Under the pieces are notes generated by a model. The model worked only from the letters and a program-made list of their open reading frames with translations. It did not search any database and was not told the DNA's origin. Of a stretch of DNA of 64,000 nt, positions 16,225 through 29,973 are shown one piece after another. A program made the position numbers and the translations under genes. The stretch spans positions 4,160,001 through 4,224,000 of the forward strand of contig CM000152.2 of assembly GCA_000004695.1 (NCBI GenBank), in the 5' to 3' direction. The first letter of the stretch is position 1, and the number at the start of each line of letters is the position of its first letter. This DNA comes from Dictyostelium discoideum. Its lineage: Eukaryota.

Positions 16225-17722
16225 ATGAGTATTTTCTATCAATATCACTTAAGTGTTTTAAAAGGAACAAATCCAGAAGCCAAAAATAAAAAAGAAACTG
16301 ATAAAATTGAAAGTATTACAAAAAATTTCATTCTTGGAACTGTTGATGGAAAACAAGTATTACAAAAAAATGGTGAGTATGGTTTTTGAAAAAACAAAAA
16401 AAAAAAAAAAAAAAAAATTTTTAGTTTCCATTTTTCTAATTAATTAATTTTATTTTTATTTTTATTTTTGTTTATATTTATTATTTTTTATTTAATTTTT
16501 ATTTTTTTTTAAATAAATAGTTGCAGGTACATTTAGAATTGTTCCAAAAGAGTCTGAGAAAAATGCAATTTTAAGAGGTAACCATATTGTAGGTGGTGAA
16601 CATTTAAGTAAAACTAGACTCGTCGATAGTTTAAAGGGTCACTTTTGGGCATCAAAAATTCAAGATGTTGAAGCTTTTTTAGGTAAATGTTCAGAATGTT
16701 CATCAATTTATCCACTTAAAGATAAAAAAGAAGATGATGAAGATAAAGAAGAAAAGAAAGAGAAAAAAGATAAAAAAGAAAAGAAGGATGATAAAGAAGA
16801 TAAAGAGGATAAAGAAGAGAAAAAAGATAAAGACGAGAAAAAAAAGAAATCATCAAAGAAATCAAAAGAACCAAGTGATAATGAAACTGAAGAGGAAGAA
16901 GAAGAAGAAGAAGAGGAACCAGAAAAAAAACCAACTAAAAGCAGATCAAGATCATCTTTAGCCGCTGCAACAAAAACTGTAGCTAAAACACCAACTAGAT
17001 CAAAATCATCACTTAAAGAAAATGAAACTAAAGAAAAAGAAACCAAAGAAACCAAAGAAAAAGAAGCTAAAGAAAAAGAAGCTAAAGAAAAAGAAGCTAA
17101 AGAAAAAGAAACCAAAGAAAATGAAACAAAAGAAAAACCAAAAGGTAAAGGAAAAGAAACAAAAGAAAAAGAAAAAGAAAAAGAAAAAGAAAAAGAAAAA
17201 GAAAAAGAAAAAGAAAAAGAAAAAGAAAAGGAAAAGGAAAAGGAAAAGGAAAAAGAAAAAGAAAAAGAAAAAGAAAAGGAAAAGGAAAAAGAAAAGGAAA
17301 AAGAAAAAGAAAAACTAAAGGAAAAAGAAAAAGAAAAAGAAAAAGAAGCATCAGAGGGATCAGATTCAGATTCAGAAACTAAAGAATCTGGTAAAAAGAG
17401 AAAATCACCATCAACAACAGCATCAAAAAAGAAAGCAAAGGTCACAGCCTCTCGTTCAAATGTTACTAATAACACCAAAGAAGAGAGTGGTTCTTCAAAT
17501 GATACTGATGCTTCCTCAGCATCCGATAGTACTGCTCCAGAAGCATCCACTACCACCACCACTACCGAACCAAAGAAATCAATTCCAATGCCATCAAAAT
17601 CTGCTGTCAAATCATCAGCAAAGGTTCAACCAGAACAAAAATTCGGTGATGTTTCAATCACTGAATTAAAATCTGCCTTAGCTGTCATCACAAAAGTTAT
17701 CGAAGCCATGGAAAAGAAATAA
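16225..17722 (+). CDS. Highly charged Lys/Glu-rich (KE-dipeptide repeat) probable nuclear protein; join(16225..16372,16521..17722)
   Basis: ATG at 16225, G|GTGAGT donor at 16372 (phase 1), acceptor AG at 16519-16520. Exon 2 encodes a folded N-terminal domain (GTFRIVPKESEKNAILRGNHIVGGEHL...), then ~200 aa of KEKEKE/KEKETKE repeats encoded by (GAAAAA)n, and a Ser/Thr-rich tail. The minus-strand ORF 16708..17610 (SFSFSF...) is the antisense artefact of the same repeat. Confidence 0.6.
17161..17336 (+). repeat. (GAAAAA)n / (GAAAAG)n hexamer repeat encoding (KE)n
   Basis: Direct reading, ~29 hexamers with occasional G substitutions. Confidence 0.9.
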
Positions 17723-18220
17723 ATAATTATAATTAATAATTAACGACAATATTAAAAACTACAAAAAAAAAAAAAAAAACCAGAAAAAAAAAAAAGAAAT
17801 AAAATAAAAAAAAAAAAATGTAAAGTTAAATCCTTTATTCACCAGCAATCCATATCGAAAAAAATCTTATTTATTTATATATTTTATTTTTATTTTAATT
17901 TTTTTTTTTTTTTTTTTTTTTGTAGTTTTGGAAATTAAAAAAAGATTTTTAAAAATCGTGATTGAAATTAATCTTGTTTTTTGGGTTTGTGGAAAAATAA
18001 AATAAAAAAAAAGAATAGTTGCGAAAATAAAAAAAGGAATTTGAGGAATTGTTTAATCTAAATAGAAAGATTTAAAGTTTTTACCAAAAATAACAACCCC
18101 TTCTTACCAATTTTGATTTTAATTTATTTCATTTATAATTTTTTTTTTTTTTTAGTTATGTTTAATTTTTTTTCTTATAATCTTTAATTTTTTTATTTTT
18201 TTTATAAATAAAAAAACTAC

Positions 18221-18252
<32 letters not shown>

Positions 18253-18285
18253 ATTTTTTATTATCCAAAGCGAGTTTTAATAAAA

Positions 18286-18320
<35 letters not shown>

Positions 18321-18378
18321 AAATTAAATTAAATTAAAAAAAAAAAAAAAAGAATCAATTAATTAAATAGTAATCATA

Positions 18379-19137
18379 ATGTTATTTAATCAATATGTAT
18401 TTAAATATAAACAAGGATTTTATGGTCATAGGGAGTATGATTCAGTTTATTCAATAGCGTTGATTGATAGTTTATCATTACAAGAATTTATTTTTATAGT
18501 TAATAATTTAAATTATAAAATGCCTTATTATCTCTCAATTTTAAATAGTATTGCTTTATTTTTAATTTTCCCAATTAATATATTTTTATTTATATTCCAT
18601 CATAATTCTTGGATACAAACTTTTTTTTTATTATTTTTAATAGTTTTTTCTATTTTTTTATTTTCTATTAATATTTTCGAATTATATTTAGTAAGATTTT
18701 AATTCTTTTTTCTTTCTTTAAATATATAATATTTACCTTTTTTTTTTTTTTTTTTTTTATTACAAATTTTTTTTTTTTATTAATAGCCTAAAAAGAGAAT
18801 AATTACATTTATAGAAGAATTAAATAATGAATATTCAAATAGATTAATTTCATTTCATATTAATCAAGAAGAGGACATTGTTTTATTATATCCATTACCA
18901 GATCATTTTTATAAAAATGTTCCTTTCCCTTTTTTCCAAATACATCAACCAATTCAACAAGATCAAAATCAACAATTACAGGAACCATTACCTGGTAAAC
19001 AATACCAAGAGCAACAAAAACATGAAACATATACTTCAATTGATTTTCAACCAATTATTGAAACAAATCAATATTCCGAGCCATTGTTATCAGAAATTGA
19101 AGAATATACTCCAATAGATTTAAAAGAACAAATTTAA
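18379..19137 (+). CDS. Small polytopic membrane protein with a Gln-rich acidic C-terminal tail; join(18379..18690,18787..19137)
   Basis: ORF 18379..18702 is truncated at a TTA|GTAAGA donor (phase 0). An acceptor AG at 18785-18786 opens an in-frame exon ([20 protein letters not shown]...[12 protein letters not shown]). Exon 1 encodes 3-4 hydrophobic helices. There is no recognisable homolog. Confidence 0.4.
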
Positions 19138-19326
19138 AAAGTGAAATTTATAAAATAGGATTTGAACCTATTCCATAACAAACTAGATCTTAAAAATTTT
19201 GAAAAAAAAAAAGATAGTTATCTTTTTTAACTATTAAACATACCCAAATAAAATAGATTATCTTATATATTAAAATTATTTTTCTATTTTTTGTTTTTAT
19301 TTTTAATTTAAATAATTATGTTTTAT

Positions 19327-20254
19327 TTATAATAATTTAATGAAATCAAAAGTTTGAACATCATTAGTATTGGTGATAGATTTGAAAGTGATAACAATGT
19401 TACCAGATTCGAATGACCATGACCAATAGCCACTTAAATTAGCATCGTGTTTAATAACGATAGTATGATTTGAAGTTACTTCTTGAACTGCTTCTAAAAT
19501 CATTTCATCTGCACAACGTTTTGAAAGATTTGCTGCTACTTTTTCAACGATACCAGCGAAGATATGACCGAAACTATTCTTTAAATCGTCAGCAACTTTT
19601 GGATAAACAGATTCTAATGATGATTCATCGATTGACCAATCTGATGATGATTTTAATGCTTTTTTAACTGATGATAAATTATCTTTCATTTTTTGTTCGT
19701 TTGTTTTAATATTTAAACGAGTCATTAATGAATAAACACCTTGAGTTTGAATAATTGTTTCTAATTTAAATGTGTTAACATCATTTGTGTTACATATCTT
19801 TGGACGGAATAAAATTTGACAATCACCATTTTCAAATTGATATTTCCAATATGATGATAACTTTTCATCAGCACAAACAAAAACAAATTTTTTATTTGGA
19901 ACTGCAGCTAAGAATGCTTCTTTGATTAAAGGATCTGCACCTACTTTAACCATGTTTTTAGCAAGATTACCAACAACATCTTTATAAAATATACTACCAC
20001 AACTATTTGTAACCCAAGAATCATTACATTTTGCAATAATATCTTCGAAATCAAATTCGATGGCAAATGGTTCCCCTAATGATTTTTCAATTAAGGCTAG
20101 ATTTGTTTTTAAAGATTCTTCATTATCTTTTAATGATTTTCTATAACAAATTGAATTTTTATATTAGTATTTATTTATATTAGGTATTGGTTTTTAATTA
20201 AACTTATTTTTTTAATTTAAATAATAAATACCTTGAAGTTAAAGCGAGAGGCAT
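19327..20254 (-). CDS. Tandem-family copy 1: 278-aa protein with an internal two-module repeat; join(complement(20232..20254),complement(19327..20140))
   Basis: A 23-nt first exon (MPLALTS + AG) is spliced (GT...AG, phase 2) to an 814-nt exon containing ORF 19327..19953. It is 98-100% identical to copies 2-4. Confidence 0.7.
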
Positions 20255-20653
20255 TTTAAAATTTTATTAGTATTTATATTATTTTTTTAAAAAAAAAAAA
20301 GAATTTATTATTTATAGTATGTTTTGATTGAATGATTTGAAAAGAATAAAACATTTTGTATTTATACTAAAATAAATTGGAAATAAAATTAATAATTTGA
20401 TTTTAAAAAAAAAAATAGAAAAAAATTAGATTCGGTGGTAAGAAATAATTTGAAAAAAAGATATTTTTATTAATTGGAATGAAAAAAAAAAAAATTTAAA
20501 AAAAAAAAAAAATTTTTAAACAAATATCTTAAGATTTTTTTTTTTTTTTCAAAAAGGAATTATAAATTATTTATTTAAATGTACAACAACTTAATTTAAA
20601 TAGTTTAAAATAGTTTTATATTATTAAATGAATGGTATTTTTAGATAAACAGT

Positions 20654-20940
20654 TTAAAGGTCAACATGAGCATATACTGCTAATATTGGATGGATAATAA
20701 CTAATGCATCAAGGGTTAAAAGAGCAGCATTATTATTAGATTGAGAAGTTCCAACAAAATGAGTTCCTGAAATTTGATTCTTTTGAGATGCACTTTGGAT
20801 ATTAGCAATTGAATTTAATGATTCTATTAGGTTTTTTAATTATTATTATTTTTTTTTTAAAACAATGTTAATTCTTAATTTTTTTTTTTTTTTTTTTTAT
20901 TTTTTTTTTTTTTTTTTTTTTATAACTTACTGAATAACAT
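20654..20940 (-). CDS. 59-aa small Ser/Asn-rich protein gene, copy s1 (hssA/sigN-like small-protein family candidate); join(complement(20931..20940),complement(20654..20823))
   Basis: ATGTTATTCA|GTAAGT first exon (10 nt, phase 1) plus a 170-nt exon give MLFKSLNSIANIQNSSQKNQISGTQLIGTSQSNNNAALLTLDALVIIHPILAVYAHVDL*. The coding exons are conserved among 4 copies while the introns differ. Confidence 0.6.
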
Positions 20941-21556
20941 TTTAGATTTTTAACAATTTAATACAAGTGTTTGATTATTTTTAATGATTAAAAAAAATAT
21001 TTTTTATTCATTTTATAGTTTTTTTTTTTTAATAATATTATTGTATTTTAAAATTATTATTAAAAGATTTCATATAATTTAATAATGAAAAAATAACCAA
21101 GTGATCAATTTTGATCAGCTTTTGAATCAATTATCTATTCTAATCAGTTAGAATTTATTTATTAAAAATCACAAAATCTGTTATTTAAATTTTGTGGTAT
21201 ATTAATTAATAAAAAAAAAAAAAAGAAAAAAGAAAATTGTAAAAATAAAATTAAACACATTTTAATAAAACCTTTAATGTATTTAAATTCTATTTTTACA
21301 AAAAAATTTAACATCGTTTGTATTAGTGATTGAGATGGCAATTTTTTAAATTGACCATAATGGACATTTAAGAAAAATGTGAATTAAAACAATATTATTT
21401 TTGTTATTGCCAATTAATATTTTTTTTTTTTTTTTTTTTATCTATTAACACAAAAAAATAACAGATTTTGGGGTTTTTTTTTAAAATTTTAAAGTTTTAT
21501 TAATAAAATGATTGGAGATTAAAGTAACTTTTAAAAAATAATAAGTTTATTTATTT

Positions 21557-21588
<32 letters not shown>

Positions 21589-21681
21589 AATAATAATATC
21601 AATAATAAAAAAAACTATAAAATAAAAATTTTATTTTTTTAATTTAATCATTAAAATTAATTAAAATATTAAAAATTTAAA

Positions 21682-21955
21682 ATGTTATTCAGTAAGTTTA
21701 ATAAAAATTATAAAATTTGTAATATTTTTAATATTGAAAACAATTTAATATTAATTATATTAAAAAAATTATAAAAATTATTTAGAATCATTAAACTCAA
21801 TTGCCAATATCCAGAATTCATCTCAAAAGAATCAAATTTCAGGAACTCAATTAATTGGAACTTCTCAATCAAATAATAATGCTGCTCTTTTAACCCTTGA
21901 TGCATTAGTTATTATTCATCCAATATTAGCAGTATATGCTCATGTTGACCTTTAA
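21682..21955 (+). CDS. 59-aa small protein gene, copy s2, transcribed divergently from s1; join(21682..21691,21786..21955)
   Basis: Same two-exon structure as s1. The exon-2 nucleotide sequence is the reverse complement of 20654..20823 (near-identical). Confidence 0.6.
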
Positions 21956-22116
21956 ACTGTTTTATTAAAAATATTAAAACTATTATAAAATAATTTGTTG
22001 TATTTTTAAATAAATAACTAATTTAATAAATTTTTAAAATTTCTTTTTCTATAAATTTAATCATTAAATTAAAAATAAAAAAATAGAAAAAAATATTTAT
22101 TTATTTAATGTTTTAT

Positions 22117-23047
22117 TTATAACAATTTAATGAAATCAAAAGTTTGAACGTCATTGGTATTGGTAATAGATTTGAAAGTGATAACAATGTTACCAGATTC
22201 GAATGACCATGACCAATAGCCACTTAAGTTAGCATCGTGTTTAATAACGATTGTATGATTTGAAGTTACTTCTTGAACTGCTTCTAAAATCATTTCGTCT
22301 GCACAACGTTTTGAAAGATTGGCTGCTACTTTTTCAACGATACCAGCAAAGATATGACCGAAACTATTCTTTAAATCGTCTGCGACTTTTGGATAAACAG
22401 ATTCTAATGATGATTCATCGATTGACCAATCTGATGATGATTTTAATGCTTTTTTAACTGATGATAAATTATCTTTCATTTTTTGTTCGTTTGTTTTAAT
22501 ATTTAAACGAGTCATTAATGAATAAACACCTTGAGTTTGAATAATTGTTTCTAATTTAAATGTGTTAACATCATTCGTGTTACATATCTTTGGACGGAAC
22601 AAAATTTGACAATCACCATTTTCAAATTGATATTTCCAATATGATGATAACTTTTCATCAGCACAAACAAAAACAAATTTTTTATTTGGAACTGCAGCTA
22701 AGAATGCTTCTTTGATTAATGGATCTGCACCTACTTTAACCATGTTTTTAGCAAGATTACCAACAACATCTTTATAAAATATACTACCACAACTATTTGT
22801 AACCCAAGAATCATTACATTTTGCAATAATATCTTCGAAATCAAATTCAATTGTAAATGTCTCACCTAATGATTTTTCAATTAAGGCTAAATTTGTTTTT
22901 AAAGATTCTTCATTATCTTTTAATGATTTTCTATAATAAATTATATATTTAAATTAGTATTTATTTATATTAAGGCATTGGTTTTTTAATACCTTATTTA
23001 GTTTTAAAACTAAATAATAAATACCTTGAAGTTAAAGCGAGAGGCAT
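22117..23047 (-). CDS. Tandem-family copy 2 (278 aa); join(complement(23025..23047),complement(22117..22930))
   Basis: ORF 22117..22743 is identical in protein to copy 1. The upstream 23-nt exon (MPLALTS) is conserved. The unit period is ~2.79 kb. Confidence 0.7.
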
Positions 23048-23475
23048 TTTTAAAATTTGATTGTTATTTATTTTATTTAAAAAAAAAAGAATTTGTTATT
23101 TAAAATATATTTTGATTGAATGATTTGAAAAGAATAAAACATTTTGTATTTATACTAAAATAAATTGGAAAAAAAATTAATAATTTGTAGAAAAATAGAA
23201 AAAAAAAAGATTTGATAGTAAGAAATAATTTAAAACAAGATATTTTTAAAAATTGGAATGAAAAAAAAAAATCTAACAAAGATCTTTCATCAAAAAAAAA
23301 AAAAATAAAAAATAAAAAATAAAAAAAAAATAAAAATTTTTAAACAAATATCTGAAGAGGTTTTCTTTTTCTTTTTTTTTTCCCCAAAGGGAATAAATTT
23401 TTATTTAAATGTACAACAACTTAATTTTAATAGTTTTAAATTATTAAATGAAAATGGTATTTTTAGATAAACAGT

Positions 23476-23732
23476 TTAAAGGTCAACATGAGCATATACT
23501 GCTAATATTGGATGAATAATAACTAATGCATCAAGGGTTAAAAGAGCAGCATTATTATTTGATTGAGAAGTTCCAATTAATTGAGTTCCTAAAATTTGAT
23601 TCTTTTGAGATACACTTTGGACATTTGCAATTGAGTTTAATGATTCTATTAAGTTTTTTATAATTTTTTAAAGGTTAGTTTTAAATTGTTTTCAATATTA
23701 ATAATTTTATTATTTAACTTACTGAATAACAT
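23476..23732 (-). CDS. 59-aa small protein gene, copy s3; join(complement(23723..23732),complement(23476..23645))
   Basis: Same structure. Its intron resembles the intron of s2 (the plus-strand copy of unit 1), indicating that the segment is inverted between units. Confidence 0.55.
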
Positions 23733-24499
23733 TTTAGATTTTTAATATTTTTATACAATTTATTAATTTTAATAATTAAATTTAATAAAAAAATTTTATT
23801 TATAGTTTTTTTAATTGATATTATTATTTTTTTGTTTTTTTTTATTTTTTTTTTTTTTTTTTTAACAAATAAACAACCTTATTACTTTTTAAAAGTCGCT
23901 CTAATCTCCAATCATTTTATTAATAAAACTTTAAAATTTTAAAAAAATAAAAAAAAACCCAAAATCTGTTATTTTTTTTTGTGTTAATAGATAAATAAAA
24001 AAAAAAAATAAAAAAAATAAAAAAATAATAATAATTGGCAATAACAAAAATAATATTGTTTTTATTCACATTTTTCTAAAATGTCCATTATGGTCAATTT
24101 AAACAATTGCCATCTCAAACAATAATAAAAATGATGTTCAATTTTTTTCTATAAATACATTAAAGGTGTTATAAAAATGTGTTTAATTTTGTTGTTACCA
24201 TTATTTTATCTTTTTTTTTTTTTTTTTTTTTTTTTTGAATTAATTACCACAAAATTTATATAACGTGTTATGTGGTTTTTAATAAAATTTTTTTACTGAT
24301 TAATAGATAATTGATTCAGATAGCTGATCAAAATTGATCACTTGGTAAATTTTTCATTAAAAAAAATTATATGAAATTTTTTTAAAATAAATTTAAAATA
24401 CAATAATATTATTAAAAAAAAAACTATAAATGAATAAAAAAAAATTTTTTAATCATTAAAAATAATCAAACACTTGTATTAAATTTTTAAAAATCTAAA

Positions 24500-24768
24500 A
24501 TGTTATTCAGTAAGTTATAAAAAAAAAAAAAAAAAAAAAAAAAACTACAAAAAATTAACATTGTTTTAAAAAAAAAAATAATATAAAAAACCTAATAGAA
24601 TCATTAAATTCAATTGCTAATATCCAAAGTGCATCTCAAAAGAATCAAATTTCAGGAACTCAATTAGTTGGAACTTCTCAATCAAATAATAATGCTGCTC
24701 TTTTAACCCTTGATGCATTAGTTATTATTCATCCAATATTAGCAGTATATGCTCATGTTGACCTTTAA
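24500..24768 (+). CDS. 59-aa small protein gene, copy s4; join(24500..24509,24599..24768)
   Basis: Encodes MLFKSLNSIANIQSASQKNQISGTQLVGTSQSNNNAALLTLDALVIIHPILAVYAHVDL*. Its poly-A-rich intron resembles the intron of s1. Confidence 0.55.
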
Positions 24769-24949
24769 ACTGTTTAATTAATAATTTCAAAACTATTTTA
24801 AAAAATAATTTGTAGTATATTTAAATAAATAATTAATTTAAAAATTTCATTTTCTTTTATTTTAATTTAATAATTAAAATAAAATCTAAAACTTAATTTT
24901 TAAATAAAAAAAAGAAAAGATTATTTATTTTATTAATTTGATATTTTAT

Positions 24950-25867
24950 TTATAACAATTTTATGAAATCAAAAGTTTGAACGTCATTAGTATTGGTGAT
25001 AGATTTGAAGGTGATAACAATGTTACCAGATTCGAATGACCATGACCAATGACCATTTAAGTTAGCATCGTGTTTAATAACGATTGTATGTTTTGAAGTT
25101 ACTTCTTGAACTGCTTCTAAAATCATTTCGTCTGCACAACGTTTTGAAAGATTGGCTGCTACTTTTTCAACGATACCAGCAAAGATATGACCGAAACTAT
25201 TCTTTAAATCGTCTGCGACTTTTGGATAAACAGACTCTAATGATGATTCATCGATTGACCAATCTGATGATGATTTTAATGCTTTTTTAACTGATGATAA
25301 ATTATCTTTCATTTTTTGTTCGTTTGTTTTAATATTTAAACGAGTCATTAATGAATAAACACCTTGAGTTGGAATAATTGTTTCTAATTTAAATGTGTTA
25401 ACATCATTTGTGTTACAAATCTTTGGACGGAATAAAATTTGACAATCACCATTTTCAAATTGATATTTCCAATATGATGATAACTTTTCATCAGCACAAA
25501 CAAAAACAAATTTTTTATTTGGAACTGCAGCTAAGAATGCTTCTTTGATTAAAGGATCTGCACCTACTTTAACCATGTTTTTAGCAAGATTACCAACAAC
25601 ATCTTTATAAAATATACTACCACAACTATTTGTAACCCAAGAATCATTACATTTTGCAATAATATCTTCGAAATCAAATTCAATTGCAAATGGCTCACCT
25701 AATGATTTTTCAATTAAGGCTAAATTTGTTTTTAAAGATTCTTCATTATCTTTTAATGATTTTCTATAATAAATTATAATATAAGTATAAATTAATATAT
25801 ATTTTTATTAATCTTTTTAATAACATTTAATTATAATAAAATACCTTGAAGTTAAAGAGAGTGGCAT
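24950..25867 (-). CDS. Tandem-family copy 3 (278 aa; variant residues P, K, N, H); join(complement(25845..25867),complement(24950..25763))
   Basis: ORF 24950..25576. The first exon encodes MPLSLTS. It carries copy-specific substitutions (SKHTIVIKHDANLNGHW, IIPTQG). Confidence 0.7.
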
Positions 25868-26362
25868 TTTTAATTATTTTTTTAATTATTTTAAATAAAA
25901 AGAGTCACAAAAAAGAGTTTATTATTTATAATATGTTTTGATTGAATGGTTTGAAAAGAAAAAAATATTTTGTATTTATACAAAAAAAAAGAAAGTAAAA
26001 AAAAAACTTTAAAATAAAATTAGAAAAAAAAAAGATTGGATAATCAGAAATAAAAAAAAAAATAAAAATAAAAAAAAAACTAAGATATGTCAAAATAAAA
26101 AAATTAGAAAAAAAAAAGATTTTTTAAAATTTCTGATATATTCTTCCAAAATAAAAAAATATCTTTACTGGTTTTTTTTCATTTTATTTCTAAAAACTTA
26201 ATCTTTTTTTTTTCTAATTAAAACTATTATTATATTTATTATTATTTTTTTTTTAATATAAATAAACAAAATGTTTTATTGTTTCAAATCATTAAATCAA
26301 AACATAAAAAATAGTAAACACCTTTTTTTTAAAAAAAATAAACAAAAATAATTAATTTCAAA

Positions 26363-27263
26363 ATGCCTCTCGCTTTAACATCAAGGTATATATTTTTTTT
26401 TTTTTTTTTTTTTTTTTAAATTGTTAATATTAATAAATTTTAATTATAGAAAATCATTAAAAGATAATGAAGAATCTTTAAAAACAAATTTAGCCTTAAT
26501 TGAAAAATCGTTAGGTGAGCCATTTGCAATTGAATTTGATTTCGAAGATATTATTGCAAAATGTAATGATTCTTGGGTTACAAATAGTTGTGGTAGTATA
26601 TTTTATAAAGATGTTGTTGGTAATCTTGCTAAAAACATGGTTAAAGTAGGTGCAGATCCATTAATCAAAGAAGCATTCTTAGCTGCAGTTCCAAATAAAA
26701 AATTTGTTTTTGTTTGTGCTGATGAAAAGTTATCATCATATTGGAAATATCAATTTGAAAATGGTGATTGTCAAATTTTGTTCCGTCCAAAGATATGTAA
26801 CACGAATGATGTTAACACATTTAAATTAGAAACAATTATTCCAACTCAAGGTGTTTATTCATTAATGACTCGTTTAAATATTAAAACAAACGAACAAAAA
26901 ATGAAAGATAATTTATCATCAGTTAAAAAAGCATTAAAATCATCATCAGATTGGTCAATCGATGAATCATCATTAGAATCTGTTTATCCAAAAGTTGCTG
27001 ACGATTTAAAGAATAGTTTCGGTCATATCTTCGCTGGTATCGTTGAAAAAGTAGCAGCAAATCTTTCAAAACGTTGTGCAGATGAAATGATTTTAGAAGC
27101 AGTTCAAGAAGTAACTTCAAATCATACTATCGTTATTAAACACGATGCTAATTTAAGTGGCTATTGGTCATGGTCATTCGAATCTGGTAACATTGTTATC
27201 ACCTTTAAATCAATCACCAATACAAATGATGTTCAAACCTTTGATTTCATTAAATTGTTATAA
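26363..27263 (+). CDS. Tandem-family copy 4 (278 aa), inverted relative to copies 1-3 and head-to-head with copy 3; join(26363..26385,26450..27263)
   Basis: ATG at 26363, AG|GTATAT donor at 26385 and acceptor AG at 26448-26449 join in frame to ORF 26421..27263 (which starts at an alternative TTG only as an ORF-finder artefact). Confidence 0.75.
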
Positions 27264-27405
27264 ATAATAATTCAAAATAAAAATAAATAAACTCATTTAA
27301 AAACTAACTATTAATTTATTTAAATTATTTATATTATTTATTATTTTCTTTTTATTTTTTTTTATTTTTTTTTTTTTTATTTTTTTTTTTTTTTTTGTTA
27401 ATTTA

Positions 27406-27472
27406 TTAATTCTTTTTAAATTTATTATTAAAGTTACTGTATTTAACTGATTTTGATTTTAATTTATCAGTG

Positions 27473-27510
<38 letters not shown>

Positions 27511-29627
27511 TGAATGATCGATAGATAAAGATGATGATTTTGTTGAAATAAATAAAAGTTTAAAGATACCTAAATAAATTGGTACTAAACCAAATATGAA
27601 AAAAGGGAAGAATAAGAAACCCCAATTATTTGAAGCTAAAATTATACCAATGAATAAATTTTTCCAACCTATTGACCAAAGTGCCCACCATTCGAATACT
27701 AAAAACGTTGGATGAGAAACCAAACAAATGATCATCCAAATTAATTTGACAAGTTTTGATTTAACTTTATTTTCCAATATAAAAGTTGTAAAATGTAATG
27801 TTGGTAATGATAAAACAATAAATAAACATGTAAATTGGTTATTTAACATCATACCCATTAATCCCAATAATGCATAATCTATAAAAAAAAAAAAAAATTA
27901 ATAATAAATATATAAATTATTTATATATAAATAAAATAAAACTTACATAATAATAAAATTGTTTGGGTACCATACCAATCATTTTTATTAAAAGTTGGAA
28001 AAGATATTGATAAAATTTTAGTTATATATTTTGAAATTGGTGATAAAATGAAAAAGTAAAATGAAATACACGCTAAAAAAAAAGTGAAAGAAAAGAAAAT
28101 GATTTGATTCTCTATTGAATTTGTAATTGATAATGTTGAGAATAGATTATTTAAAAGCTGTGATGATTTATATAAATTTGCAGGTTGTAAATCATTAGTT
28201 GGAATTAAATTAAAACTTGATAAAAACCAAGGTAACAATAAAATAGTTGAACAAAATAAAAGTATTGATAGAAACCATGGTAAAGATAATAGAATTCTAA
28301 TTGTAATATTCTCAATTGAAATAGAAATCGATATCAATTGTAAGAAAATCCCAACACTAAATACAATCACTGGTAACAATGCTTGACCCAAATCAATGAA
28401 AAACACAGCACCCGCCATCATATACCATCTATAACTTTGATGTAATTGTTCATCTGCATTATGTAAATGTCTAATAACAGTCTCCATTATTTTCCCCAAA
28501 TTAAAAAATGTTGTATTACTTAATGGTTCTTCATTAAATCTTTATTTTTTAAATAAAATAATAAAAGTTAATAATATATTATTAATTTATTTATTATTAT
28601 TATTATTTATTTAATTAATTATTACCTTTTAATATTTTTATGAATTTTATGTAATGGTGTATTTAAGAAATCAATATCCCAAACATTATGAGAATGGTCA
28701 GTACTGACACCAACTGAATTGATACCATATTGAGTGAATATTGCATGATTTGAACGTGGTAATGATAAAGCGGAATTCCACATGAAAATTAATAAACCAT
28801 AGAGTGAACCTTCAACAGCTTCTTGATCCATATGAGTGTTTATACCAGCTGGTATATCATTTAAGAATGATGTAGTGGTGATTACATTTAATATATCTAA
28901 ATTTGATAAACCACCTTTTAAACCCTCTGGGTACACTAAAATTCTCTCCATATTTTTATTACCAACCCTATCAATTGCAATTGCACCATAAATTTGACCT
29001 GCTCTTAATAATGTTTTTGATGAATAATTATTTTCTAAAGAATTTCCTTTCTGTTGTTGTTGTTGTTGTTGTTGTTGATGATCACCACCACCAGCAGTCC
29101 AACCAACTGGTTTAACACTATAGTAATCATTTAACCAAACTGATATACCTGAAATATCCATTGATGTACCACCATTAATTTCACCACCTTCACTTGTGAA
29201 AACATATATTATATCTCTTGCTTGCCATGATGTATTCTTTAAATACTCTGAAAATCCAATTAAAAATCCAACTGATCCTGCACTATGCCATTGATCAAAT
29301 GATGTTGTCAATACAAAATTCTCTGTACCTAATGATCTAATTGCTTTTGATATACCAATTACATTTACTCCTATCCTATCTATTAATTAAAATAATAATA
29401 ATAAATTAATATATTGAATATATTATATATATATATATATATATATACAACCACAATAACAAATCTTACTAAATGATGAATTAAAAAAATATAATTGAGT
29501 TTCTAAACCCAATTGATCTAATTGATATTTTATCCAATTTGCGCTATTTAATGCCTCATTTGAACCTAATGACCTATTCGGGAACTATATACACATATAA
29601 GAAATAATATATTAATTATAATTTGTT

Positions 29628-29689
<62 letters not shown>

Positions 29690-29973
29690 CTGTTAATTAA
29701 AATAATAATTACCAGGGTTTTAAAATCGTTTGAATAATTTATACAAATATCTGCAAATTGATTAGATATAAATGGGCTAACTGTACATTGTAAATTCTTT
29801 TCTGATACATAAGTGTGTGAACCGAGAAAAGGAAGAAAGAAAATCAGAAATATTGATCCTAAATGAACTGTTATAGAAAGTATTGAAATAATCTTTAAAT
29901 TTTTGAAAAACGGATATAATATATTAAATGCTTGATATCCAACACTTTCAACTTCTGCTATCAATCCCTTCAT
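27406..29973 (-). CDS. gpaa1: GPI transamidase component GAA1/GPAA1 homolog; join(complement(29713..29973),complement(29470..29584),complement(28626..29379),complement(27947..28539),complement(27406..27878))
   Basis: Five exons with consistent phases (0,1,2,1). The translation matches human GPAA1 along its length (LGSHTYVSEKNL vs QRTYMSENAM; LNSANWIKYQLDQLGLETQLYFFNSSFS vs [34 protein letters not shown] vs KDIVFLVTEHD; KIMETVIRHLHNADEQLHQSY vs KLNHLLERLHQSF) and has a C-terminal multi-TM region. Confidence 0.8.

Follow-up and report, generated by a model that had tools for sequence, protein, structure and literature searches.

A compound gene array beside Gaa1 in Dictyostelium discoideum, variable in copy number and apparently homogenized by gene conversion

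A 64-kb stretch of the genome of Dictyostelium discoideum AX4 (contig CM000152.2, positions 4,160,001 to 4,224,000; referred to below as the window, with position 1 as its first letter) contains four nearly identical genes for a protein of 278 amino acids (aa), interleaved with four genes for a protein of 59 aa, and exact protein look-ups place this array on chromosome 3, adjoining the gene for Gaa1. The locus raises the questions of (i) whether so uniform a set of copies is real; (ii) if so, what keeps the copies alike; and (iii) what kinds of protein the two gene types encode. We consider it quite probable that the array is a genuine multigene cluster that has grown by duplication of a unit and has been reshaped by exchange between its copies under purifying selection.

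The features of the array are listed here, with c and s denoting large and small genes, respectively; every gene line is based on a gene model and on an exact match to an AX4 protein.

19299..27289, no strand: whole compound array, in the order c1(-) s1(-) s2(+) c2(-) s3(-) s4(+) c3(-) c4(+), with limits taken from self-BLAST
19327..20254, minus strand: c1, DDB_G0281187, 278 aa, Q139; exon 2 19327-20140, intron 20141-20231, exon 1 20232-20254
20646..21973, no strand: small-gene cassette of unit 1, consisting of inverted-repeat arms and a spacer of ~740 nucleotides (nt), from self-BLAST and global alignment
20654..20940, minus strand: s1, DDB_G0281189, 59 aa; exon 2 20654-20823, intron 20824-20930, exon 1 20931-20940
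21682..21955, plus strand: s2, DDB_G0281191, 59 aa; exon 1 21682-21691, intron 21692-21785, exon 2 21786-21955
22117..23047, minus strand: c2, DDB_G0281193, 278 aa, Q139, T32, T34; exon 2 22117-22930, intron 22931-23024, exon 1 23025-23047
23476..23732, minus strand: s3, DDB_G0281195, 59 aa; exon 2 23476-23645, intron 23646-23722, exon 1 23723-23732
24500..24768, plus strand: s4, DDB_G0281197, 59 aa; exon 1 24500-24509, intron 24510-24598, exon 2 24599-24768
24950..25867, minus strand: c3, DDB_G0281199, 278 aa, S4, K232, N244, H246; exon 2 24950-25763, intron 25764-25844, exon 1 25845-25867
25868..26362, no strand: divergent intergenic region of c3 and c4, with a TATAAAT-plus-leader block on each side (four upstream regions aligned)
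26363..27263, plus strand: c4, DDB_G0281201, 278 aa, the Gaa1-proximal inverted copy; exon 1 26363-26385, intron 26386-26449, exon 2 26450-27263

All eight translated models are identical to annotated AX4 proteins, DDB_G0281187 to DDB_G0281201, each of which is named 'hypothetical protein', and the layout is backed by the repeat families D6-D8 together with the inverted repeats I1-I3. The four large genes share one structure, with an exon 1 of 23 nt, a GT..AG intron (91, 94, 81 and 64 nt in c1 to c4, respectively) and an exon 2 of 814 nt; the four small genes, which form two divergently transcribed pairs, each have a 10-nt exon 1, an intron of the form GTAAGT..AG and a 170-nt exon 2. A preliminary description of the window had already proposed the two-exon large genes, the two divergent pairs of 59-aa genes and a fourth large copy inverted head-to-head with the third, all of which were recovered when the models were rebuilt (c4 begins 495 nt from c3). 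It had also described a ~2.8-kb unit repeated three times: the three direct large-gene copies are indeed spaced 2790 nt and then 2833 nt apart, but the third "unit" is a large gene alone. A tblastn search of the whole window found no further copy.

Consistent with exchange between the copies, similarity among the large genes is concentrated in their main coding exon. Whichever two copies are compared, exon 2 is 97-98% identical, whereas introns are 50-85% and flanks 64-85% identical, the shuffled baseline for intron and flank identity being 67%. Outside the exon, c4 is close to noise when compared with the other copies (intron 50-59%, flanks 64-79%). Furthermore, the 13 informative sites among the four AX4 copies include all three possible partitions, arranged in blocks: c1 goes with c3 at sites 234-378, with c4 at sites 570-726, and with c2 at sites 416 and 777. 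Incompatible pairs make up 46 of the 78 site pairs, and like partitions are clustered (permutation p ~0.03). One tract, of seven sites over 157 nt, unites the inverted copy, c4, with c1 and with no other copy.

We compared the locus in three genomes of the D. discoideum complex, including that of AX4, and one genome of D. citrinum, using Gaa1 as the synteny anchor throughout (Pfam Gaa1 match in the syntenic loci). Beside Gaa1, D. citrinum has two large genes, arranged head-to-head, and one small gene; D. discoideum strain ACTFIR has three large and two small genes; AX4 has four of each; and D. cf. discoideum ACTFIZ has five large and eight small genes. The suspicion that copy number varies was thus well founded, the number of large genes being two, three, four or five according to the genome. 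In a neighbor-joining tree of exon 2, the array copies cluster by genome and not by position. The Gaa1-proximal copy differs from the distal copy of the same genome by 16 nt in AX4, 12 nt in ACTFIR, 9 nt in ACTFIZ and 4 nt in D. citrinum, whereas large copies in the same position of different genomes are 29-79 nt apart. The two head-to-head copies of D. citrinum, although only 4 nt apart, are 74-79 nt from the AX4 copies, and c4 is the positional ortholog of one of them. Because the sites form a mosaic, the copies cluster by genome, the positional comparison points the same way and identity is confined to the exon, we regard concerted evolution through conversion, which extends to inverted copies, as well supported by the aligned copies. 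The preliminary description had read the mosaic as a sign of ongoing exchange or conversion, and on this point the site partitions, the clustering by genome and the exon-limited identity all bear it out.

These comparisons indicate how the array came about. Its ancestor consisted of two 278-aa genes placed head-to-head on either side of one small gene, an arrangement that D. citrinum still has; this gene pair is older than the divergence of D. citrinum. The locus then grew, within the D. discoideum complex, by duplication of a ~2.8-kb unit, comprising one large gene and a small-gene cassette, and the number of units presumably changes by unequal crossing-over between direct units, giving three, four and five large copies in the three genomes. 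Gene conversion, largely confined to the 814-nt exon and operating between inverted copies as well, keeps the coding sequences of each genome nearly uniform while introns and spacers drift. The label "recently amplified", which had been attached to the array, is only partly right: synonymous divergence (dS) between copies is 0.07-0.14, the flanks of the direct units have fallen to 64-85% identity, and the head-to-head pair predates the D. citrinum split.

A further rearrangement affects the small-gene cassettes. In self-BLAST, the unit 1 cassette (20646-21973) matches 24776-23458 in reverse complement, with 86.5% identity over 1381 nt, and in a global alignment the stretch between the small-gene start codons of unit 1 is 87% identical to that of unit 2 when inverted, versus 71% in direct orientation. 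Once the orientation of each locus is allowed for, the unit 1 cassette is inverted relative to that of unit 2, to that of ACTFIR and to all four cassettes of ACTFIZ. This fits recombination between the inverted small-gene arms, which would have flipped one cassette in AX4.

Could the array instead be an error of the reference, in which a repeat was wrongly expanded or collapsed? Near-identical 0.8-kb repeats in very AT-rich DNA (the window has ~20% G+C and long A and T runs) are difficult to assemble from short reads, and the preliminary description had singled out assembly duplicates as a matter to be checked. However, a second chromosome-scale assembly, GCA_054883475.1, encodes the same four large proteins and matches window positions 17000-29652 (12.6 kb) with no mismatches and three indels. 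Moreover, each copy has private sites and a distinct intron length, pairs of large copies having 17-26 nt differences in their 837-nt coding sequence, and in other strains a homologous array occupies the same flanking context. Because the second assembly matches, the copies are individually distinct and other strains hold such arrays between the same flanks, the array is genuine, and we regard an assembly artifact as extremely improbable.

If the array is real, its uniformity might still have arisen without gene conversion, each lineage having recently and independently amplified its own unit. Copy number does vary among the genomes, and within a genome the direct units are alike along their whole length, as such a history would predict. 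The inverted Gaa1-proximal copy is nevertheless old, its position being shared with D. citrinum, yet its exon is 97-98% identical to the others; nor is independent amplification easily reconciled with the 157-nt tract shared by c4 and c1, the 4-nt pair of D. citrinum or the like pattern at a second locus described below. It is largely refuted for the inverted copy and, taken as a whole, improbable. Old duplicates kept alike by purifying selection alone, with no exchange, are less probable again, and we give this reading very little credence: the ratio of nonsynonymous to synonymous divergence (dN/dS) is very low and the large protein is 93-95% identical even to the proteins of other species, but selection on the protein leaves unexplained why synonymous sites have diverged by only 7-14% beside introns and flanks that are at or near saturation, and it accounts neither for blocks of incompatible sites nor for clustering by genome. 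We therefore retain the reading of a genuine cluster reshaped by exchange. Some points weigh against it, namely that the mosaic test draws on only 13 informative sites, with p ~0.03; that the sample of four genomes is small; that the second assembly is AX4-like and may not be fully independent; and that independent amplification may explain part of the genome-wise clustering of the direct units, if not that of the inverted copy.

Strong purifying selection on the large protein acts on top of recombination. Differences between the AX4 large copies are almost all synonymous (dN/dS 0.015-0.16), and, to judge from these ratios, the large protein is under strong purifying selection, which accounts for much of the high protein identity among the copies. 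The protein pairs are 1-7 aa apart (97.5-99.6% identity) and no two are identical, so that the range of 98-100% given initially was slightly too high. Residue 139 is Q in c1 and c2 and P in c3 and c4, as had been noticed; Q139 (codons near 19747 and 22537) replaces a proline that is invariant in a 13-sequence family alignment reaching Acytostelium at 42% identity, and this residue sits at the boundary between the two modules of the protein. The replacements P32T and A34T, in c2, and A4S, in c3, had been overlooked. Copy 3 had also been credited with K, N and H substitutions of its own, which holds among the AX4 copies (K232, N244 and H246) but not beyond them: N244 and H246 are the state of array copies in other strains, leaving only K232 and S4 private to c3 among the array copies compared. 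Some amino acid substitutions are common to all copies of one strain.

The splicing of the 23-nt first exon had likewise been marked for checking. The D. purpureum ortholog of the large gene is an uninterrupted open reading frame (ORF) that reads MPLSLTSRKSLKDNEE across the proposed splice junction and is colinear with the spliced product. Together with the canonical splice signals and the match to curated AX4 proteins, this ORF supports the predicted splice. The D. purpureum ortholog has no intron, and in every D. discoideum-group copy examined the intron follows nucleotide 23.

The pattern of the array recurs at a second AX4 locus on the same chromosome, ~0.53 Mb away, which holds two genes for 278-aa proteins, DDB_G0281613 and DDB_G0281617, with the small gene DDB_G0281615 between them. 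It resembles the array in having both gene families, in the order large-small-large, in exon structure and in within-genome homogenization; the large copies are 8 nt apart in AX4 and 58-63 nt from those of D. citrinum. It departs from the array in that its two large genes lie in tandem and its one small gene has another C-terminal half; no amplification of a unit was seen in AX4, strain ACTFIW or D. citrinum. The locus is kept in both of the latter.

What, then, is the large protein? An initial homology search found relatives in dictyostelids only, and the preliminary description had recognized no homolog. A profile search of 1.84 billion representative sequences, however, returned 316 clusters at an expectation value (E) of at most 1e-3, 143 of them at E<=1e-10, which places the protein in an unnamed eukaryotic family of considerable size. 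Its named sources include Cavenderia, Physarum, Mastigamoeba, Percolomonas and the chytrid Borealophlyctis, that is, Amoebozoa, a heterolobosean and a chytrid, the only groups in which the domain has so far been seen, and many further relatives come from environmental contigs of ~1 kb. We take these groups to be organisms with crawling amoeboid cells. So conserved a protein does not suggest the strain-specific function that had been raised as a possibility.

Over 132 residues, the two halves of the large protein have 37% identity (E 1e-20), and they define two modules of ~138 aa. The two 45-aa modules and intervening linker of the preliminary description have to be replaced accordingly, the 45-aa pattern being the C-terminal strand region of each longer module. 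Among the 197 family proteins collected, the chains have one to five modules, two being the commonest number (115 proteins), and the Percolomonas relative has an added N-terminal PH domain. The consensus of 203 non-redundant modules features LPLxxRKN, two glycines, DEMxKEA, a tyrosine and FExG, with no Cys or His position conserved; the NTND motif, noticed earlier, occurs in the dictyostelid subfamily only. Another relative in D. discoideum, DDB_G0290465 (695 aa), and other multi-module relatives share with the large protein the ~137-aa module, from LPLxxRKN through DEMxKEA to FExG, but differ in having five modules in one chain, in being single-copy and in lying outside the array.

Searches for a named domain or a solved fold gave little. 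With hmmscan, no Pfam family matched the large protein at E<=1, and Pfam scans of 20 relatives placed no family on the repeated module itself. PDB sequence searches, with the single protein as well as with the profile, returned no significant match and one non-significant match to a Dicer domain. The AlphaFold2 model of the large protein is confident, with a predicted local distance difference test score (pLDDT) of 93 and a predicted template modeling score of 0.81; for each module it predicts three or four strands besides five or six helices. A Foldseek search with this model against PDB and viral models found nothing at E<0.1, and the domain has no convincing neighbor among solved structures. 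The best structural neighbors were zincin-like metallopeptidase domains (Wss1/SprT, the aminopeptidase N catalytic domain, MATCAP and anthrax lethal factor) and HECT C-lobes. The large protein has neither an HExxH (or variant) zinc-binding helix nor a significant fold match to zincins, and neither the conserved catalytic cysteine nor the adjoining N-lobe of HECT ubiquitin ligases; because these defining features are absent, we file it under neither group. Similarly, assignment to the double-stranded-RNA-binding domains was dropped, sequence and fold searches having given no significant match. Inspection of the large protein revealed no signal peptide or hydrophobic segment. Since it also has modular repeats and no conserved residues of catalytic type, and since one relative is fused to a PH domain, we tentatively suggest that it might be a non-enzymatic cytosolic binding or scaffold protein that is dosage-sensitive.

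The 59-aa genes, whose predicted product includes the stretch GTSQSNNNAALLTLDALVIIHPILAVYAHVDL, have a far narrower distribution. Among 5.8 billion proteins, searched by sequence and by profile, nothing matched but the four array genes and DDB_G0281615, which encodes a 58-aa paralog with an identical 10-nt exon and intron position; protein identity between paralogs of this type and the array proteins is only 45-50%. D. citrinum holds orthologs of both small-gene types at corresponding positions. With hmmscan, no Pfam family matched the small proteins at E<=10. Their N-terminus, of the type MxxFxSIxSIxN, seemed to us to resemble that of the hssA/2C/7E-like small proteins of Dictyostelium, and we treated this as a lead only. 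Membership in that group was rejected, the Pfam scan at E<=10 being empty and the homology searches having yielded only the five AX4 genes of the 59-aa family.

Whether these genes encode proteins at all can be judged from how they have changed. The small ORF has survived without disruption in all 14 copies of the array type from the D. discoideum complex, and likewise in the array ortholog of D. citrinum and in the three second-locus paralogs found. Exon 1, the GTAAGT donor and exon length are fixed, and intron length ranges from 75 to 107 nt. The GC content of exon 2 is 29-30%, like that of the large-gene coding exons, versus 6-13% around it (for s1, 30% versus 7-13% in the intron and spacers). 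Pairwise comparison of 12 intact 59-aa copies from three genomes gave a nonsynonymous-to-synonymous ratio (pN/pS) of ~0.4 overall, falling to 0.26 in the C-terminal half, and dN/dS between the D. citrinum ortholog and five copies is 0.35-0.5. The first six models had suggested near-neutral change; with the wider sample, in which pN/pS is below 1, the view that the small ORFs are spurious was dropped as the leading one. One of the eight ACTFIZ copies has TG in place of the AG splice acceptor before exon 2 and may be a decaying copy.

A reading of the 59-aa "genes" as conserved non-coding elements, for instance parts of a regulatory or RNA-producing inverted repeat, that keep an ORF incidentally could point to the 230-nt inverted repeat (86-90% complementarity) that each small-gene pair forms. 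Several observations that favor it also weigh against our own reading: homologs are confined to the D. discoideum/D. citrinum lineage, these genes are missing from newer genome annotations, the small proteins are constrained only moderately, and their AlphaFold2 model has a pLDDT of 52 and no confident fold. What the non-coding reading does not explain is that ORF, start, 10-nt exon, GTAAGT donor and stop are kept across a dS of ~0.3 and even in the paralog of 45-50% identity, with intron length free to change and no frameshifts. Likewise, the coding-like GC content of exon 2 and a pN/pS below 1, lowest in the C-terminal half, speak against it, and a search of Rfam on both strands of 18000-29000 returned no match at E<=1. 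On balance we think it unlikely, and the 59-aa genes are, on this comparative evidence, probably real, young, fast-evolving protein-coding genes.

At every locus with small genes, a large gene is preceded at ~400-550 nt by a small gene of its own orientation, as c1 is by s1 at ~400 nt, an arrangement seen at two loci and in two species. Most likely, the 59-aa genes would be partners or co-regulated neighbors of the large genes. A broader proposal, that an undescribed ~137-aa alpha/beta domain, present one to five times per protein, has in the D. discoideum/D. citrinum lineage been coupled to a new 59-aa gene 400-550 nt upstream, the two forming a dosage-tuned functional module, is speculative and in our estimation doubtful; large genes without a small gene, which occur at other loci and in other species, tell against such coupling.

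The spacers between the small genes were searched for large-gene remnants. The best-conserved spacer piece in unit 1, at 21301-21333 on the minus strand, reads ISITNTNDVKFF, and the matching piece of unit 2, near 24100-24132 on the plus strand, translates to ISNNNKNDVQFF. As these pieces resemble the C-terminal SITNTNDVQTF of the large protein, they may have been left behind by the 3' end of a large gene. The search itself gave only the 11-aa SITNTNDV(K/Q)FF at E 0.21, and permissive blastn of the spacers was dominated by AT-rich noise.

With respect to expression, alignment of the upstream regions reveals a TATAAAT box and leader block conserved in front of all four large genes. A literature search by gene and UniProt identifiers found one paper that names array genes, two in number, and its supplements hold nothing on the other array genes. 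In that study of a dnmA (DNMT2) knockout, DDB_G0281199 and DDB_G0281201, called unannotated, have low read counts in growing cells and are induced 15-fold and 4-fold, respectively, in the knockout, together with retrotransposons and small heat-shock (hsp20-type) genes. These two genes are the pair with the common 495-nt divergent intergenic region. The relative DDB_G0290465 appears in one proteomic table in another paper, and neither paper addresses the function of the array genes or of this relative. That published mention of the array is limited to low counts and to induction of two genes in one mutant weighs against our reading of it.

On its right, the array is flanked by the multi-exon gene for the GPI (glycosylphosphatidylinositol)-transamidase component Gaa1 (27406-29973, minus strand), which contains polyglutamine runs. 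To the left lies a long imperfect repeat with a 12-nt period (16708-17610), which is lysine-rich on one strand and encodes Ser-Phe repeats on the other; by coordinate conversion, it falls in a 450-aa gene of the second assembly.

The locus has practical consequences as well as some general interest. Short reads will multi-map across DDB_G0281187, DDB_G0281193, DDB_G0281199 and DDB_G0281201, and single knock-outs of large genes would be buffered by six paralogs. Within 8 kb, the array offers a compact and unusually clean case, in a model organism, of copy-number change, exon-limited conversion and inversion through inverted repeats, and positional orthologs in sister genomes allow these recombination processes to be separated. 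The parts most worth attention are the unnamed domain family, with hundreds of members and a confident model but without a Pfam entry, and its coupling to a young orphan gene family.

The array overturns nothing in current understanding: its genes are already annotated as hypothetical proteins, and the genome behavior that it exhibits is of a familiar kind. Concerted evolution, through unequal crossing-over and gene conversion, is classic for ribosomal DNA, histone and globin genes and many lineage-specific gene clusters. Among the sampled genomes we found at least three tandem units, within-genome similarity, an incompatible mosaic and copy-number polymorphism. Like the classic families, the array has head-to-tail units whose paralogs within a genome are closer than positional orthologs, a mosaic of conversion tracts, polymorphic copy number and homogenization concentrated on coding sequence. 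It differs from them in being small (3-5 units) and compound, each unit combining two unrelated gene types, in having an inverted member that joins in conversion, and in having a cassette that has been flipped between inverted repeats.

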